Virus record (IMG/VR): IMGVR_UViG_3300005263_000008
Coordinates: 1 to 35,181 of that record
Length of the DNA stretch: 35,181 bases
Source: a virus
Taxonomy: Duplodnaviria > Caudoviricetes
Strand: one strand, 5' to 3'
Part shown: positions 2,668-20,060 of the stretch, piece by piece
Numbering within the stretch: position 1 is the first letter of the stretch
Layout: every line of letters begins with the position of its first letter
Position numbers and translations under genes: made by a program
The notes under the pieces: generated by a model
What the model saw: only the letters and a program-made list of their open reading frames with translations
Told to the model about the DNA's origin: nothing
Databases searched by the model: none

Positions 2668-3177
2668 ATGGAGCCGGTTCTATCCCCCCACTTCTCCCTC
2701 TCGGAGCTGACCCGCTCCGAGACGGCGACACGTCTCGGCATCCCGAACGATCCGCCCGAAGGCCTGGCCGCGAACGCGGTCCGGCTCTGTGAGCTCGCCG
2801 AGGAGGCCCGCGACATCCTGTGCCGGGCCGCTGGGCGCGAGGTCCGGATGGTCGTGAGCTCTGGCTACCGCTCGCCCGAGCTGAACGCGAACCCGGCCGT
2901 GGGCGGGGCAGGGGCGAAGCCAGGGGAGAAGCTCTCGGCCCACTGTGACTTCCGGGCCATGGACTTCCATCCGGAGGGGACGAATCTCGCGACGGCCTTC
3001 GATGTGCTGCGCCGGAGCGCCCTCCCGTTCGACAAGCTGATCTTCGAGATCGACTCGCGGGGCGCCGCCTGGCTCCACCTCCAGGTCGAGAGGGAGGGGG
3101 AACGCCCTGCTCGACTGGTCCTCCGCGGGATGAAGGGCCCCGACGGGAGCTCCTACCGGAGGCTGCCCGATGCTTGA
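2668..3177 (+). CDS. Endolysin, peptidase M15 family (Zn peptidase)
   Basis: LSPHFSLSEL start, SSGYRSxxLNxxxxVGGA, SAHxxxxAMD (H-x6-D) and WLH zinc ligands. ATG2668 has no SD and may be leaderless. Confidence 0.9.
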   Translation: MEPVLSPHFSLSELTRSETATRLGIPNDPPEGLAANAVRLCELAEEARDILCRAAGREVRMVVSSGYRSPELNANPAVGGAGAKPGEKLSAHCDFRAMDFHPEGTNLATAFDVLRRSALPFDKLIFEIDSRGAAWLHLQVEREGERPARLVLRGMKGPDGSSYRRLPDA

Positions 3178-3925
3178 GCGCCTGGTCGGACCGGATCGGG
3201 GCCGAGTGGCCGTCCTCGGCGCCTGGGCGCTGATCGCGCTGCTCGTGGTGGGCGGGTCTTCCTGGAAGGCCTACCACCTTGGGCGGCAATCGGTCGACAT
3301 GGCCCAGGAACGTCGGAGGGTGAGCGATGCCGAGGCGAGAGAGTCCCAGGCGAAGGCGTCGGCGAAGGCGTCCGGAGAGCTCGCCGAGGACCGTCTTCGC
3401 GAGGTGGAGCGCCTCCGGGGCCAGCTCGCCAGCCGGCCCACGCCGCCACCCGCTGAACCTGTCGCTCCCGACGCCTCGGCCGCAGACGTGGCCGCAGGCC
3501 TTTCGGGCCTGGGGCTCCGTCCTGTGCTCCTGGGAGGAGATCCAGCGCTGGGGCTGAACCTGCCCGACGGGCGAACGATCTTAGGCTGGGGCCGCGAGGT
3601 CCAGCGCGTCCCGCCTCTTGTCGCGAGACTCGAGACGCTGGAGCAGCTGGCCCAGGCCCAGGAGGGCGCGACAAGCGCCCTCCATCGACAGGCCGCCGAC
3701 CTGGCGGCCGCGCTCAAGGCTTCCGACGAAGGGCGAGAGGCAGAGCGAAGGATTGCGCGCCGGCTGGCGCCAGACCGGCCCTGGGCCGCGGGCCTCCTGG
3801 TCGGGGTGGATACGACGGGGACCCGGAGGCTGGGGGCCTATGCGTCGAGGTCCTGGGGCCCTGCACAGTTCCAGGTCGTGGTGATGGGCAATCAGGCCGC
3901 CATCGGAGGCGGGTTCAGGTTCTAG
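3170..3925 (+). CDS. Spanin-like lysis protein (N-terminal TM, coiled coil, C-terminal beta-strands ending GGGFRF)
   Basis: Rz position after the endolysin; hydrophobic segment about aa 13-30; Ala/Glu/Arg/Gln-rich helical middle; terminal Phe. Confidence 0.65.
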   Translation: MLERLVGPDRGRVAVLGAWALIALLVVGGSSWKAYHLGRQSVDMAQERRRVSDAEARESQAKASAKASGELAEDRLREVERLRGQLASRPTPPPAEPVAPDASAADVAAGLSGLGLRPVLLGGDPALGLNLPDGRTILGWGREVQRVPPLVARLETLEQLAQAQEGATSALHRQAADLAAALKASDEGREAERRIARRLAPDRPWAAGLLVGVDTTGTRRLGAYASRSWGPAQFQVVVMGNQAAIGGGFRF

Positions 3926-3946
3926 GGACACGGGGAGGAGGCCAAG

Positions 3947-4192
3947 GTGACCACCGAGCGAACGGAGTTCAAGCGGGCGAGCGATGCGTTGTTTAAGTGG
4001 GCGCTGGGCCTCGTGGGCCTGGGCCTCGTCGCGGCGATCGGCCTCCTTCTCGACATCCGCTTCCAGCTCGGCGTCTACCAGGCCGACGCCAAGGCGATGA
4101 AGGACCGGCTCGACAAGGTCGAAGCCTGGGAGCTCCGCCACGACCAGGAGGACCGGGCGCGGTTCCAGGCCCTGGCGAGGGAGCCGAAGTAG
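3947..4192 (+). CDS. Single-TM membrane protein, holin/antiholin candidate
   Basis: GGAGG RBS; WALGLVGLGLVAAIGLLL TM followed by a charged coil; last gene of the lysis cassette. Confidence 0.7.
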   Translation: MTTERTEFKRASDALFKWALGLVGLGLVAAIGLLLDIRFQLGVYQADAKAMKDRLDKVEAWELRHDQEDRARFQALAREPK

Positions 4193-4782: not shown

Positions 4783-6302
4783 ATTTCCGCACCCTCCTAC
4801 CCTGGAAGCGGGCAGCGGAGCCCAAGGCTGCAGATGGCAGGGCGCCAAGGGCCCGCACCTACGCCGGGGCCCAGCTCTCGCGGTTCGTCGACTTCTCGAT
4901 CGTCCTCGAGTCGGCCCACCGGGCCCGGCTTCGCGACCTCGCCAAGCTGCGGGCCCACTCCCGCGACCTGGCCGCGAATAACGTCTACCAGAAACGGTTC
5001 CTCGAGCTCGTCTCGACCCACCTGGTCGGGCCGGATGGCATCACCTTCGAGAGCGAGATCCTCGGCAACCTGGGGAAGCCGAAGGAGGACCTCAACGACC
5101 AGATCGAGGCCGCCTGGGAGGACTGGGGGAAGGTCTGCACGACGGACGGCCGCCTCTCCTGGCTCGAGTTCCAGCACCTGGTCGGCGAGACCGTGGCGGT
5201 CGATGGCGAGTGCCTGATCCGCAAGGTCCGCGGCTACCCGAACGCCTTCGGGTTCGCGGTCGAGATCATCGACGCGGACCGGCTGGATCATCGCCTCAAC
5301 ATCCCCGCCTCCAGATACACGAACCGGGTCGTCATGGGCGTCGAGCTGGACGACTGGGGCCGGCGCGTGGCCTACCACATCTGGACCGCTCACCCTTCCG
5401 ACCGGGAGGCAAACCCGGTCCTGGTTCGCGTCCCCGCCGAGGAGATTCTCCACGTCTACACGGAGGACCGTGTTCGCGCGACCCGCGGGCTCCCGTGGGC
5501 GACGCCCTGCATGGTTCAACTCAATATGCTCGGCCGTCTCTGGACGAGCGAGCTCGCCGCGGCGAATCACGAGGCGGACCGGATCGGCATCATCAAGAGC
5601 CAGCAGGGCGCGGATCCTGACCTCTTCGTCGGGGAGGGCGACAACGCTCCCACGACCGACGCGATCGCGAACGCCCAGGAGATCAGCTCGGAGATCGCCA
5701 CGTTCCTCGGCCTCGACCCCGGCCTCGACGTGGTCTTCCCCCAGCTGCAGCACCCGAACGGAGCCTTCCCGGAATTCTCGAAGTTCCTGCTCAAGGGGAT
5801 CTCGGCCGGGTTCGGCGTCTCCGCGCACAGCCTGACGGGCGACGTCTCCGAGGCGAACTTCTCCAGCCTTCGGGCCGCGCTCCTGGACGAGCGGGACCAC
5901 TGGCGGAAGCGCCAGGCCTGGTTCATCAAGAGCGTTTGCGCGCCGATCTACGCGGACTGGCTCCGCCTGGCGATCTTCGCCGGCAAGGTCCCCGCGATGC
6001 CGTTCGAGAAGGCCCACGCCCCGGTCTGGTGGCCGCGGAGCTGGGACTGGGTCGACCCCGAGAAGGACGCGAAGGCGTCGCTCCTGTCGATCCAGGGCGG
6101 CCTCTCGACCTACCAGCAGGAGCTCGGCGCCCGCGGCCAGGACTGGCGCGAGACGTTCCGCCAGCTGGCGGAAGAGAAGGCCTACGCGGAGGAGCTGGGC
6201 CTCGAGCTCGGCGACCACAAGGGCCAGCCGGCAACCGCGCCCAAGCCGGACCCCGCAACGACCACCACCCCGGACCCGGAGGCAGCTGATGGAAACTCGT
6301 AA
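4779..6302 (+). CDS. Portal protein, lambda family
   Basis: LRAHSRDLAANN, DGECL, GVELDDWGRRVAYH, RGLPW, LTGDVSEANFSSLR and WDWVDPEKD motifs. Confidence 0.96.
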   Translation: MNFRTLLPWKRAAEPKAADGRAPRARTYAGAQLSRFVDFSIVLESAHRARLRDLAKLRAHSRDLAANNVYQKRFLELVSTHLVGPDGITFESEILGNLGKPKEDLNDQIEAAWEDWGKVCTTDGRLSWLEFQHLVGETVAVDGECLIRKVRGYPNAFGFAVEIIDADRLDHRLNIPASRYTNRVVMGVELDDWGRRVAYHIWTAHPSDREANPVLVRVPAEEILHVYTEDRVRATRGLPWATPCMVQLNMLGRLWTSELAAANHEADRIGIIKSQQGADPDLFVGEGDNAPTTDAIANAQEISSEIATFLGLDPGLDVVFPQLQHPNGAFPEFSKFLLKGISAGFGVSAHSLTGDVSEANFSSLRAALLDERDHWRKRQAWFIKSVCAPIYADWLRLAIFAGKVPAMPFEKAHAPVWWPRSWDWVDPEKDAKASLLSIQGGLSTYQQELGARGQDWRETFRQLAEEKAYAEELGLELGDHKGQPATAPKPDPATTTTPDPEAADGNS

Positions 6303-8106
6303 GATCGAAGGCCCGCAGATCCGGACGCTCGTCCTCGAGCGCTCCACCGTCAACGAAGAAGCCCGCACCGTCGAGCTCGCGATCTCCTCGGAGGCCCCGG
6401 TCGAGCGCTGGTTCGGGACCGAGATCCTGGGCCACGGCCCCGGCGAGGTCGACCTCTCCCGCCTGCTCTCTGGGGCGCCCCTGCTGGTGAATCACGACAC
6501 GGGCGACCAGGTCGGCGTGGTGGAGGAGGCCCGGGTCGATTCCGACCGCATCCTCCGCGGCGTCGTGCGGTTCGGCCGCTCCACCCGCGCCGAGGAGATC
6601 TTCCAAGACGTGAAGGACGGCATCCGCTCGAAGGTCTCGGTCGGCTACCAGATCCTCCGTTATGAGCTCACCAAGGGCCAGAACGGCGCCCCGGACATCG
6701 TCCGCGCCACCCTCTGGCAGCCCATGGAAACGAGCCTTGTCGCCATCCCCGCCGACGACTCCGTCGGCGTCGGACGTTCCGCCTCTGCACCCGAGGCACC
6801 TCTCAACCCACCGGCCGCTCCGGCCGGCACCGCGAAGGAGGTCCGTATGGACCCCGTTATCACCCCCGCGGCCGCCCCGGCGGCCGACCCCCTGGCTGAA
6901 CGCCAGGAAGCCCTCACCCTCCAGGCCCTCGGCGACCAGCTGGGCATCGGCTCCCAGGTCCGCGAGATCCTCGCGACCGTCGCCGACCTCACCGAGGCCC
7001 GCCAGAAGGCCATGGTCGCTCTCGCCGAGCGCGCCGCGAAGCCTCTTCCGGCCGCTCCCATCGTCACCCTCGAGGGGAAGGAGCGGTTCAGCATCGGCCG
7101 CGCCATCGCCGCGAAGCTCGATGGCCGGAGCTGCTTCGAGCTCGAGGTCTCCCAGGAGATCGCCAAGAAGCTCGGCCGCGACACGAACGGGATCTTCGTC
7201 CCGACCGCGACCCGCGCCAACCCCCCCATGGACACCGCGACGGCCGCCTACGGCCAGAAGCTGGTCTTCACCGAGCAGGGCGAGTTCATCGAGCTCCTGC
7301 GGGCGAAGCTCACCCTCCTGGGTCTGGGCGCGCAGTTCCTGACCGGCCTCCGCGGTAACGTGAGCTTCCCCCGGCAGCTCACCGCGAACACCGCGAACTG
7401 GCTCCAGGAGAACGCGGCCTCCGGCGTGACCGCTGCGGCCTTCACGACCGACCTGGTCACCCTGACCCCGAAGCAGCTCGTCGCCCAGACCTCCGTGACC
7501 CGGAACCTCCTGGCCCAGAGCACCCCGGGCGTCGATGCCCTGATCAACAACGACCTCGCCGCGATCCACGCGATCGCGATCGAGGCCGCCGCGATCAACG
7601 GCTCCGGCTCCGGCTCCTACCAGCCCCTGGGCATCCTCGGGACCTCGAGCATCGGTGACGTCCCCGGCGGCACGAACGGCGCCCAGCCCACCTACGGCAA
7701 CATCGTCGACCTCGAGAGCGCGGTCGCCACGGCCAACGCCGACATGGGCACCCTGGCCTACCTGACCAGCCCCGGCATCCGCGGCCGCCTCAAGCAGACC
7801 CAGCAGTTCTCCAGCACGAACGGGGACTCCGTCTGGGACTACCTGATGGCCGCCTACCCGAAGAGCGCCGTCACCAACAACGTCCCCCAGACCCTCGTCA
7901 AGGGCGCGAGCGGCGCGGTTTGCCACGCGATCCTCTTCGGCAACTGGGCGGACCTCGTTCTGGGTGAGTGGGGAGCCTTTGAGTTGATTCCGGATCCCCT
8001 GACCCAGGCCGCCAAGGGCCTCGTGGTCCTGACCACGAACCAGCTGGTCGATTCCGCCGTCCGCCGTCCCGGCTCCTTCGCCGCGATGAAGGACGCCCTC
8101 AAGTAA
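6289..8106 (+). CDS. Prohead protease (HK97-type) fused to major capsid protein
   Basis: N-terminal SSEAPVER..EILGH..PLLVNHD..VSVGY..ETSLVAIPAD protease; Pro/Ala linker; C-terminal HK97-fold capsid (INGSG..QPLGIL, LFGNWADL, VRRPGSFA). Confidence 0.95.
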   Translation: METRKIEGPQIRTLVLERSTVNEEARTVELAISSEAPVERWFGTEILGHGPGEVDLSRLLSGAPLLVNHDTGDQVGVVEEARVDSDRILRGVVRFGRSTRAEEIFQDVKDGIRSKVSVGYQILRYELTKGQNGAPDIVRATLWQPMETSLVAIPADDSVGVGRSASAPEAPLNPPAAPAGTAKEVRMDPVITPAAAPAADPLAERQEALTLQALGDQLGIGSQVREILATVADLTEARQKAMVALAERAAKPLPAAPIVTLEGKERFSIGRAIAAKLDGRSCFELEVSQEIAKKLGRDTNGIFVPTATRANPPMDTATAAYGQKLVFTEQGEFIELLRAKLTLLGLGAQFLTGLRGNVSFPRQLTANTANWLQENAASGVTAAAFTTDLVTLTPKQLVAQTSVTRNLLAQSTPGVDALINNDLAAIHAIAIEAAAINGSGSGSYQPLGILGTSSIGDVPGGTNGAQPTYGNIVDLESAVATANADMGTLAYLTSPGIRGRLKQTQQFSSTNGDSVWDYLMAAYPKSAVTNNVPQTLVKGASGAVCHAILFGNWADLVLGEWGAFELIPDPLTQAAKGLVVLTTNQLVDSAVRRPGSFAAMKDALK

Positions 8107-17049: not shown

Positions 17050-17603
17050 GCCTCGTTATCTACGGATTGCAGGAAACCCAGATCATCCTCTACGAGGACG
17101 ACGGGATCACGCCGAAATATCGGATCACCCTACAGAAGGAGACGAAGGAAGGCCTCGAGCTCTCCTTCGCCGCCGAGGGCGTTTCCAGGGGGCTCGGAAG
17201 CGGGGCGAAGTGGGCCCGGTCCTGGTGCCAGCGCGGATGGCGGATGACGGTCTCCATCCGCTGGGACGCTGGGATCGAAAGCACCGCCGAGACCTGGGAC
17301 GGGTCGGCGTGGGTTGAGGCTCGCGCGGTCCCGACAGCCCAGGCCCTGAGTGTGATCCAGACCTGGGGGACCCGGACCCCCTGCAGAGTCTCGCCCCATA
17401 AGGACATGAACCTCGACTTCTTGGCTCAGCCGGACCCATCCAAACCCCTCCGCCTGCGGGACGTGAAGGGTGCAGCTCACACCGGCCTCGAGCTCGTGCT
17501 CGTCGCTTCGGACCTTCTGGGCAACATCCCCGACTGGGAAAACCTCAACAGTTACTTCTCCTCGGGCTACACCGAGGGCGTTTACGGAGCCTACACGCCA
17601 TGA
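17046..17603 (+). CDS. Minor tail protein (possibly Dit-like)
   Basis: 185 aa, ATGA-coupled on both sides, inside the tail cluster; function inferred from position only. Confidence 0.6.
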   Translation: MSLVIYGLQETQIILYEDDGITPKYRITLQKETKEGLELSFAAEGVSRGLGSGAKWARSWCQRGWRMTVSIRWDAGIESTAETWDGSAWVEARAVPTAQALSVIQTWGTRTPCRVSPHKDMNLDFLAQPDPSKPLRLRDVKGAAHTGLELVLVASDLLGNIPDWENLNSYFSSGYTEGVYGAYTP

Positions 17604-18004
17604 GCAGCCCCTTCGTCTTCATCGAGGCCCACCTGGGCCTTGTCTGCTGGTCCTTGGTGGGCCTGGTGCTCCTGGTGCTCTACCTGCGAGGGCAGGCCCA
17701 GGGCTTCTGGCCCTTCCTGCGCGACACCCTTTCAGAGTGGGACCTCACGGCCCAGCGGATGATCCCCAGCACCAAGCGGATGACCCTGCTACTGGCCCTC
17801 TGGGCCAGCCTTTGGGCCTTTACCAAGCTCACCCTGGCCGTATGCCGCTGGATCGACAAGGGCAACGACCCGACCGCCATCTACATCACCGTCGCGCTGG
17901 CCGTGCTGGGCCTCGCGGGCGGCACTTACTTGGGGGGCAAGTGGCTCGCCGGGAAGCTGCCACCGGGCCTAGGCCCCGACTCCACTGACACGCAGAGCAA
18001 ATAG
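17600..18004 (+). CDS. Three-TM membrane protein, holin candidate
   Basis: Three hydrophobic segments (LGLVCWSLVGLVLLVLYL; MTLLLALWASLWAF; IYITVALAVLGLAGG) and a polar C-terminal tail. Confidence 0.7.
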   Translation: MSSPFVFIEAHLGLVCWSLVGLVLLVLYLRGQAQGFWPFLRDTLSEWDLTAQRMIPSTKRMTLLLALWASLWAFTKLTLAVCRWIDKGNDPTAIYITVALAVLGLAGGTYLGGKWLAGKLPPGLGPDSTDTQSK

Positions 18005-18012
18005 GAGGCCCC

Positions 18013-19761
18013 ATGCTCAAGCGAATCCTAACCGCGTTCCTCTTCCCGCTCCTGGTTTTCGCCCAGGCGCCGAAGGTAACCGTCACCACGAGGCAGGCGG
18101 CGGGAGCTGCGCTCACCTTCGTCCAGGCTGACAAGAATTTCACCGATCTCCAGGCCGCGGCCAACGCCAGCCGAAGGGCCTGGGGCTGGAAGGAGTCGGC
18201 CACCTCTGGTCTCACCTGGGCCTATTACGGCGGGCCCGCCTGGAACGGGACCACCTGGACCATGATCTCGGATGGGACCCTCGCGCTGACCGCGAACGCC
18301 TCGAACTACATCGAGCGCACCGCGGGCGGCGCCGTCACCGTCAGCACCACCGGATGGACCGGGAACCTCCCTCTCGCTCTGGTGGTAACCGGCGCCTCCA
18401 GTGTCACGAGCACCACGGATTACCGGGGGAGCCTGGAGAGCGTGGCCCAGAGCCTCCCCAACGCTCCCGGGGGGCCACTCTTCGCTCTGAAGACAGCCTT
18501 GACCGAGGGGCTGACCACCGGCATCCAGATCCTCAGCGACAGCACGGGCAACGACACCACCGACTGGCCCTACATCCTGGCCCAGCAGATCGCGGCGTCC
18601 TACCCCAACTTCACCGTCGATCATCTGCTTTGGTCGGATGCAACCCAGACCTATGCAGCGCCCACCAGAATCCAGACCGGCACGGCTGGCGAGCGCTACC
18701 TGGATTGTGGGGCGGGGAACTACGCCAGCCTCACCGATCCCGCGACCTCAGTCGGCCCGACCACCACCACCACGCCGATCGACGTGCGCGCCAAGGTCTC
18801 GCTCACGTCCTGGACCCCTGCGGCCCTGCAATACATCATCATGCTCGACAAGGGCGCCGCTCCGGGCATTGGTTGGCGGTTCTACGTCAACACCGCGGGA
18901 ACCCTTGGGTTCCTTTGGTCTCCCGATGGAACGGCGGCTAATTCGGTCGCTTCCACCGTGGGAACCGGGTTCGCCGCCAATGACATTCGCTGGATCCGCT
19001 GCCTGTTCAACCCCAATGATGGGAGCGGGAACCGGGTCACAAAGTTCTACACCTCGACCGATGGCGCCACCTGGACCCAGCTCGGGACCACTGTCACCAC
19101 GGCAGGAGCGACCACTGTCTTCAACCCGCTCCCTACCTATGGTTACTGGATCGGTGGGGTCAACAACGGCCCGGCCATCTACACCAAGATCTATGCCGTC
19201 GACGTAAGGGATGGCGACACCGGGCCTTCCCTGGTCCCCATCATGCCGGATCTGTGGTCCACTCACGGCAGCGCGACCACGCCTCAGCCGCTGGTGGGAG
19301 CCCCGGTTCTAACTGTCGTCAACGGGTCCCACCCCGGCGCGAATATCTCCTACCTGGGCAACGCCACCCGGCTCCCGAAGATGGTCCCGAACTACGGGCA
19401 GGCCGTCACCTTCGCCTCTGACAACCACAACGAGGCCTACATCACCGGGGCGGCCTGGGGCGCCCTCTACAAGACCTGGACCGATCTGATCAAGGCTAAG
19501 CTCCCGAACGCTGGGATCGTGGCGATGACACAGAACCCCGAGACTTCGGCCGCCGTGCTCAATCGGACCCACGCCCGCCGCCGGCTGGACCTGCTCGGGT
19601 TCCGAGCGACTCAGGCCCTCGAGGTCATGGACATTTACAAGGTGTTCATGGACGCCGGATTCCCGGGGTCCCTGATGACGGACTCGGTCCATCCCAACAC
19701 GACGGGTTCGACCTTGTGGGCCACCTATGTAAAGCGGCGCATCGACCAGGCCACGCGCTAG
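18013..19761 (+). CDS. Tail fibre/spike-like protein with SGNH/GDSL esterase domain, inserted beta-sandwich and N-terminal signal peptide
   Basis: GGAGG RBS; SGNH blocks LSDSTG, NGSHPG, DNHNE and DSVHPN; Thr/Gly-rich beta insert between blocks I and II; last gene of the tail operon. Confidence 0.75.
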   Translation: MLKRILTAFLFPLLVFAQAPKVTVTTRQAAGAALTFVQADKNFTDLQAAANASRRAWGWKESATSGLTWAYYGGPAWNGTTWTMISDGTLALTANASNYIERTAGGAVTVSTTGWTGNLPLALVVTGASSVTSTTDYRGSLESVAQSLPNAPGGPLFALKTALTEGLTTGIQILSDSTGNDTTDWPYILAQQIAASYPNFTVDHLLWSDATQTYAAPTRIQTGTAGERYLDCGAGNYASLTDPATSVGPTTTTTPIDVRAKVSLTSWTPAALQYIIMLDKGAAPGIGWRFYVNTAGTLGFLWSPDGTAANSVASTVGTGFAANDIRWIRCLFNPNDGSGNRVTKFYTSTDGATWTQLGTTVTTAGATTVFNPLPTYGYWIGGVNNGPAIYTKIYAVDVRDGDTGPSLVPIMPDLWSTHGSATTPQPLVGAPVLTVVNGSHPGANISYLGNATRLPKMVPNYGQAVTFASDNHNEAYITGAAWGALYKTWTDLIKAKLPNAGIVAMTQNPETSAAVLNRTHARRRLDLLGFRATQALEVMDIYKVFMDAGFPGSLMTDSVHPNTTGSTLWATYVKRRIDQATR

Positions 19762-20060
19762 ATCCTCGAAGTCGCAATCGTCGGGCTCGACCGAAGCACC
19801 TGGTCGGGCCCGAAAACCATCGACACGATTTGCGACTCGCCACTCCCGAAGCTCGTCCCACGTGCCCAGGTCCAGGAGCACGTTGTCAGCTCTCCTTGGG
19901 AGACCATCGTCGTCGGGCGCCCCAGCTGGGCCTCGACCTGGGCCCGGGTCGTCACGCCTGGCCGGAAGGACTTCACGAGCTCCAGGTCGACCTTGGTCCC
20001 GCGCTGGACGACGCAGCCGGGGAGGATGACGAGCGCGGGGAGAATGGCGATTGAGCGCAT
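19758..20060 (-). CDS. Lipoprotein, SmpA/OmlA (BamE-like) fold
   Basis: MRSIAILPALVILPG-C lipobox; PGVTTRAQVEAQLGRP motif; GGAGG RBS and a TAGAAT hexamer upstream. Confidence 0.8.
   Translation of the reverse strand: MRSIAILPALVILPGCVVQRGTKVDLELVKSFRPGVTTRAQVEAQLGRPTTMVSQGELTTCSWTWARGTSFGSGESQIVSMVFGPDQVLRSSPTIATSRI

Follow-up and report, generated by a model that had tools for sequence, protein, structure and literature searches.

The open reading frame (ORF) at positions 3170-3925 (+) of virus record IMGVR_UViG_3300005263_000008, a 35,181-base stretch analysed at full length and hereafter called the window, encodes a protein (P0001) that is proposed to be a one-chain spanin of reversed topology. 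An inner-membrane helix, a periplasmic stalk and an outer-membrane tail would act in this protein through hairpin collapse, a reading to which a probability of roughly 55% is assigned. The gene itself is real and conserved, sits in a lysis cassette and belongs to a family without previous description; its product is likely a known kind of machine built on a new plan. An earlier note on the same DNA had proposed a unimolecular spanin that reaches the outer membrane by an oligomeric beta-barrel. Part of that interpretation was supported, namely the lysis-cassette position, the failure to find Rz1, the Rz-like N-terminal half, the four predicted strands, a beta-signal-like end in beta-tailed relatives and the presence of BamA in likely hosts. 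The barrel as the feature defining the family did not: since 19 of 44 relatives are helix-tailed, it would be one of two interchangeable ends.

Anatomy of the candidate chain and its position in the lysis cassette

The reading frame and its terminal Phe (GGGFRF end) were as previously described. The gene, its parts and the endolysin gene that it overlaps are as follows.

2668..3177 (+): M15 peptidase endolysin gene (PF08291 E 1.4e-7; phrog_894 endolysin E 3.6e-19; start inferred)
3170..3925 (+): candidate one-chain spanin gene, 251 amino acids, P0001 (ORF, AlphaFold2 model, 44 relatives at E<=0.001)
3206..3265 (+): N-terminal hydrophobic helix, residues 13-32 (20-residue uncharged core)
3266..3430 (+): first long helix (CC1), residues 33-87 (within AlphaFold2 helix 10-87; weak Rz-like matches)
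3437..3610 (+): Pro-rich hinge and conserved hinge element, residues 90-147, ending in a Trp/Arg-Val-Pro motif (conserved with both tail types)
3611..3766 (+): second long helix (CC2), residues 148-199, with an RhxxhE motif at 153-158 (AlphaFold2 helix 148-199)
3782..3922 (+): four-strand C-terminal module, residues 205-251, with a beta-signal-like octamer at 3899-3922 (AlphaFold2 strands; conserved columns)

An AlphaFold2 model of P0001 built on 12 sequences (mean predicted local distance difference test score, pLDDT, 76.6; predicted template modelling score, pTM, 0.49) contained the N-terminal hydrophobic helix, the long helical region and the Pro-rich hinge that the earlier note had seen in the letters. 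A helix over residues 10-87 and another over 148-199 are separated by the hinge, which holds a small alpha/beta element of low confidence (pLDDT 52-69). The four C-terminal segments quoted in that note lie at residues 205-214, 220-229, 232-240 and 242-251 and were predicted as strands (206-213, 219-229, 232-239 and 242-249). They are strand-like in the model but not cleanly amphipathic, with large residues facing inward and an Arg facing outward at position 227. Strands and hairpin are both taken from structure prediction. The N-terminal helix is likely an uncleaved signal anchor, judging from its residue pattern: among beta-tailed proteins, the hydrophobic core spans at least 18 residues in 30 of 33 and ends in an aromatic residue in 30 of 33.

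Rz-like profile matches of P0001, over residues 18-87, were weak (phrog_89 E 0.0017, the best Rz-like PHROG match; TIGR03495 E 0.006), and P0001 did not pass the curated Rz model TIGR03495, with 16.9 bits against a cut-off of 92.75. Across family members, 8 of the 13 PHROG families matched at E<=0.01 are Rz-like spanins. CC1 and CC2 of P0001 are about 58 and 57 residues long, and their lengths co-vary among relatives (rho 0.61 for 20 beta-tailed and 0.51 for 19 helix-tailed proteins, uncorrected for kinship and with one row mis-assigned). Hinge length is 47-64 residues in 38 of 39 proteins measured, the remaining one being mis-assigned. Extended, the two helices would span about 17 nm, with the hinge extra, a length near the periplasmic width of 20-25 nm.

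The claim that the gene occupies the position of Rz was borne out. Its start overlaps the stop of the M15 endolysin gene by 8 bases, GGAGG sits upstream of its ATG, and most of its relatives examined are likewise in lysis-cassette position. Among 17 beta-tailed loci, nine have, one or two genes upstream, an endolysin matched to a family (M15-like, GH19, amidase_2 or GH108), three a putative enzyme (DUF5675 twice, Tlde1), two lie at a contig edge and three have none within about 1.5 kb. At five of seven helix-tailed loci an enzyme of a matched family is present (GH19 three times, M15, SLT), one carries a putative enzyme and one lies at a contig edge. The candidate gene stays while unrelated lysis enzymes change.

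A lipoprotein partner was sought with two heuristic all-frame lipobox scans, of which the strict one overlooked a lipoprotein whose box contains Pro and the permissive one recovered a control at locus L022. These scans gave no lipobox ORF in any frame in or near the candidate gene, and the sole credible lipoprotein found by the permissive scan in the 35-kb window was a BamE-domain gene 16 kb off and on the opposite strand. Homologues agreed with the earlier failure to find Rz1, no separate Rz1-like lipoprotein being detected in 16 beta-tailed loci (L046 unscanned) or in seven helix-tailed loci. What matched at relatives was either short off-frame ORFs or Cys residues, the latter lying inside genes for holin-like or small membrane proteins or in the first helix of the candidate itself. 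The alternative frames of the candidate gene in 21 loci contained no 12-residue stretch above Kyte-Doolittle 1.6. At the control locus L022 (131-2631, -), the slot of the candidate is occupied by an Rz-like gene (phrog_214 E 1.4e-6) followed one gene later by a Pro-rich lipobox ORF that matches no family, the pair being separated by a 198-amino-acid, secreted-looking gene of no known family. The candidate family therefore stands where an Rz/Rz1-like pair stands, on the evidence of this single locus.

Conservation of the strand module and exchange of tails

A phmmer search against 1.84 billion representatives yielded 44 proteins at E<=0.001, which were sorted by eye into 25 with the four-strand module and 19 that end in a short hydrophobic helix, rich in Gly and basic at its end. 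Both types are carried on one stalk. Over residues 24-187, P0001 shares 38% identity with the helix-tailed P0026 (173 aligned residues), and a profile built from the 19 helix-tailed proteins alone matches beta-tailed stalks with E 5e-39 to 2e-27. A quick tree of 45 tail-trimmed stalks needed six changes of tail type, although strongly supported branches force only one. An approximately unbiased (AU) test (LG+G4), from which five short beta-tailed forms were excluded, rejected a single clade for helix tails (p 0.0011, long branches being present), and more than one exchange of tails has therefore likely taken place. The tail can thus be swapped as a module, and a terminal Phe is not a trait of the whole family. 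The two alternative tails are alike in being hydrophobic, a composition that would fit a membrane-anchor role, and the helix-tailed forms support anchoring as the role of the tail. The AlphaFold2 model of a helix-tailed relative is all-helical (pLDDT 85.9, pTM 0.62) and superposes on antiparallel hairpins (dynein stalk, YscO, FliJ) over 131-157 residues with a root mean square deviation of 2.1-2.7; the P0001 model weakly matches some hairpin structures (7nna, 8tzl, 4cgk), which it shares with the helix-tailed model.

Conservation of the beta-tail was scored over 45 alignment rows selected for having it, six of which run 2-5 residues past the last aligned column. The last aligned residue is F in 40 rows, W in 4 and L in 1, so that the terminal aromatic residue expected in homologues is conserved among beta-tailed relatives but absent in 19 of the 44 relatives. 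For comparison, the beta-signal consensus was used as it appears in PMC10945584 and PMC13067283: a hydrophobic residue at -2 with F/W/L at 0 occurs in all 45 rows, and Gly at -5 in 28 of them. Across all loci examined, a hydrophobic-x-F/W end was found at 12 of 222 gene-like ORF ends, and 10 of these 12 belong to the candidate family. Conservation extends over all four strands, with G208 and G222 kept in 42 of 45 rows and Y224 and W229 also conserved; five inward Gly are conserved at 67-93%. Length variation falls in the first and third loops, while the turn between strands 2 and 3 is constant in 43 of 45 rows. This pattern would fit an arrangement in which the first and third loops face outward and the strand 2-3 turn is periplasmic.

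Several observations weigh against a textbook barrel and against a barrel-anchored spanin as the whole account of the family. The strands are short (8-11 residues); bulky hydrophobic side chains occupy inward positions 210, 224, 237 and 239, and in 28 of 45 rows Arg stands at outward position 227. Leakage would be expected of a 12-stranded barrel that lacks a plug, and the large inward residues could also be accommodated in a dimer with 8 strands. Helix-tailed relatives (19/44) lack the beta-module, the terminal aromatic and the beta-signal on the same stalk, which means that BAM, the beta-barrel assembly machinery, and the terminal Phe cannot be the sole working mode of the family. They also feed two rival explanations, unaided insertion of the tail and a chain with both ends in the inner membrane. 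With four strands per chain, a closed barrel would require partner chains. Hints of a trimer come from the RhxxhE motif (strict in 18 of 45 beta-tailed rows), as defined in PMC5940361, and from the autotransporter precedent (PMC3297439); a trimer would be slightly favoured over a dimer.

It is worth noting that the same four-strand tail was also observed on a Pro-rich, non-coiled stalk at two loci, L018 (1498-2136, -) and L024 (about 1070-1671, +), where no endolysin is nearby and toxin-antitoxin-like genes lie downstream.

Proposed mechanism, known systems and competing explanations

In the proposed mechanism, the inner membrane would retain the N-terminal helix, the periplasm would be spanned by the helical stalk, and BAM would set the four predicted C-terminal strands into the outer membrane as a small homo-oligomeric barrel. 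With the peptidoglycan removed by the endolysin, the stalk would bend at its Pro-rich hinge until its two long helices lay against each other, and this hairpin collapse would draw both membranes together until fusion, analogous to the proposal for lambda Rz/Rz1 outlined in PMC6139136. Topology, use of BAM, oligomer number and fusion are what we infer. Autotransporters meet BAM while still tethered at the inner membrane, according to PMC3297439, which makes a tethered BAM substrate plausible.

Comparison with established systems relies on PMC6139136 for spanins and PMC3297439 for autotransporters. With lambda Rz, the candidate shares the position after the endolysin, the succession of membrane helix, CC1, linker and CC2, a proline-rich stretch and the weak Rz-like matches described above. 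It differs from two-component Rz/Rz1 in having no detected Rz1 lipoprotein, in its greater length (251 amino acids), in the absence of Cys from the whole chain and in its four-strand end. In the spanin survey, an outer-membrane protein acting as a separate o-spanin is raised only as an unconsidered possibility. The unimolecular spanin gp11 of phage T1 is likewise a single lysis-cassette gene with a likely anchor at each end. However, gp11 has an N-terminal lipid anchor, a beta-rich middle and a C-terminal membrane helix, whereas the order is reversed in the candidate, which has a helical middle, no N-terminal lipobox Cys and, in the AlphaFold2 model, neither a C-terminal membrane helix nor a beta-rich periplasmic domain.

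The YadA/Hia trimeric autotransporter anchor (PF03895) has a coiled coil, four C-terminal strands, inward Gly and a terminal aromatic BAM motif in common with the candidate, in which each chain has four predicted C-terminal strands and a G-x-x-F-x-F end. In contrast to that anchor, the candidate stalk would face the periplasm and stay tethered instead of being exported through the pore, and several inward residues are large. PF03895 gave no match to P0001 at E<=0.1 and is not among the families listed (25 of 31) for 45 members. DUF6808 (PF20647), a family of phage proteins, came up in ESM Atlas clusters that look alike by features (0.85 for the whole protein, 0.89 for the tail; feature scores under 0.9 were treated as leads only), with the family on 33-38% of cluster members; its profile did not match P0001, it is likewise absent from the families listed (25 of 31) for the 45 members, and the literature search found no paper naming it. 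The candidate would act like a spanin, yet fails the defining tests of the Rz/Rz1, gp11-type and autotransporter families. It may belong to a third spanin class, a lipid-free chain joining an inner helix to a BAM-built oligomeric mini-barrel, whose plug-in outer anchor would have been exchanged more than once for a short hydrophobic helix on one fusogenic stalk; we hold this broader proposal tentatively, at somewhat less than even odds. No published description of a beta-strand-anchored one-chain spanin was found by a search made mostly at title and abstract level with few subscription journals.

Other explanations can account for part of these data. The tail of a one-chain fusing lysis protein might enter the outer membrane's inner leaflet unaided by BAM, as a fusion-peptide-like element and possibly only after wall loss, with strands and short helix as two solutions. 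Such a scheme is unlikely, but it draws on the interchange of tails on one stalk documented above by profile matches and the AU test, on a helix tail without a beta-signal whose length falls short of a usual membrane span, and on strands that are short and Gly-rich. The near-invariant terminal aromatic, the hydrophobic -2 position and the loop/turn pattern are nevertheless traits of BAM substrates that spontaneous insertion would not need. Alternatively, an i-spanin-like protein might dock its last strand on a host outer-membrane protein, for instance on the first strand of BamA, without any phage barrel. Lectin-like bacteriocins mimic the C-terminal beta-signal of BamA substrates, as bioRxiv 10.64898/2026.09.25.754295 reports; moreover, four strands alone cannot close a barrel and the phage itself carries a BamE-domain lipoprotein gene. 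Docking is nonetheless quite improbable, since all four strands are conserved (through G208, G222, Y224 and W229) and not the last one alone, and since this route is closed to the helix-tailed forms.

A cleaved signal peptide would turn the product into an outer-membrane-anchored subunit or an autotransporter-like surface fibre, with the small downstream membrane protein as its inner partner. By heuristic count, loose -3/-1 sites occur in 26 of 33 beta-tailed proteins, a like-built small gene lies 3' of the candidate in most loci, and four strands on a coiled coil resemble autotransporter anchors (PMC3297439; template modelling scores of 0.61-0.63 to YadA-anchor clusters in the Atlas). We regard this as very unlikely: the long hydrophobic core ends in aromatics and Ala-x-Ala sites are limited to 3 of 33, the helix that precedes strand 1 bears bulky charged side chains and is cut short by prolines, unlike a pore-plugging helix, and a like-built small gene also follows the L022 Rz/Rz1-like pair (by eye), so it is not a missing i-spanin. 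A similarly low probability is given to an ordinary i-spanin with a soluble C-terminal domain, whose o-spanin was missed or is distant, or to a chain with both ends in the inner membrane and a holin-accessory role. Annotation often misses o-spanins, as stated in PMC6139136, the strict scan did overlook one lipoprotein, the record is about 90% complete, and the helix-tailed model is compatible with a hairpin whose ends both sit in the inner membrane. Against a missed o-spanin, the permissive whole-window scan gave only the opposite-strand BamE-domain gene, yet recovered the L022 control.

Phage context, host and implications

The window (68% G+C) contains terminase, portal, protease-capsid fusion and integrase genes and thus represents a temperate tailed phage. 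Two further genes are of interest with respect to lysis.

3947..4192 (+): small membrane protein, 81 amino acids, single helix and coiled tail (without family match; holin-like or accessory role considered)
17600..18004 (+): multi-helix holin-like gene, away from the lysis block in this phage (without family match; weak similarity to other holin-like genes, E 0.09)

The endolysin block (2668-4192) is positioned between terminase and head-tail genes, while the holin-like gene stays in the tail region; at L003 (386-4790), the same tail block leads directly and contiguously into endolysin and candidate. Gene order at L036 is as in the window, with a two-helix gene inserted within the block. The small gene encoding a single helix and a coiled coil is retained behind all three spanin-slot types. 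Prohead protease and major capsid protein form one fused 605-amino-acid gene (6289-8106, phrog_617), an arrangement already known. The BamE-domain gene (19758-20060, -) encodes a 100-amino-acid lipoprotein with a weak BamE/SmpA match (PF04355 E 6.7e-5, just under the cut-off) and lies in the tail fibre/integrase interval. It is likely a moron, and a curious one alongside a candidate BAM substrate.

The host is likely a member of the Holophagaceae (Acidobacteriota). A close relative of the candidate gene was found in a Holophagaceae bacterium, profile matches were obtained in 28 of 133 Holophagaceae genomes (20 of 30 loci inspected were judged true family members), and the capsid has 47-60% identical relatives in two Holophagaceae genomes that also gave profile matches. 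BamA over the cut-off and LolA-like genes were each present in 5 of 5 Holophagaceae genomes tested, which indicates that these hosts possess an outer membrane and both routes to it. Several Holophagaceae candidates of both tail types (L011, L012, L013, L016, L017, L019, L025) have a Cys after the first helix, preceded by Ser/Gly, which may represent either a disulfide site or a lipobox of atypical form.

About 13% of phages had no identifiable spanin in a 2018 survey, and searches begin from the lipobox (both according to PMC6139136), so that a lipid-free one-chain spanin would escape them. If the proposed reading is true, the family would provide a concrete candidate for the missing outer-membrane step in some phages now listed as spanin-less. 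It would also represent a fusogen with a beta-barrel as its membrane anchor, and a BAM substrate that keeps its inner-membrane tether. In P0001 and P0026, which carry the two natural tails on a common stalk, the action of the stalk can be told apart from the mode of outer-membrane grip, and this makes the proposal directly testable.
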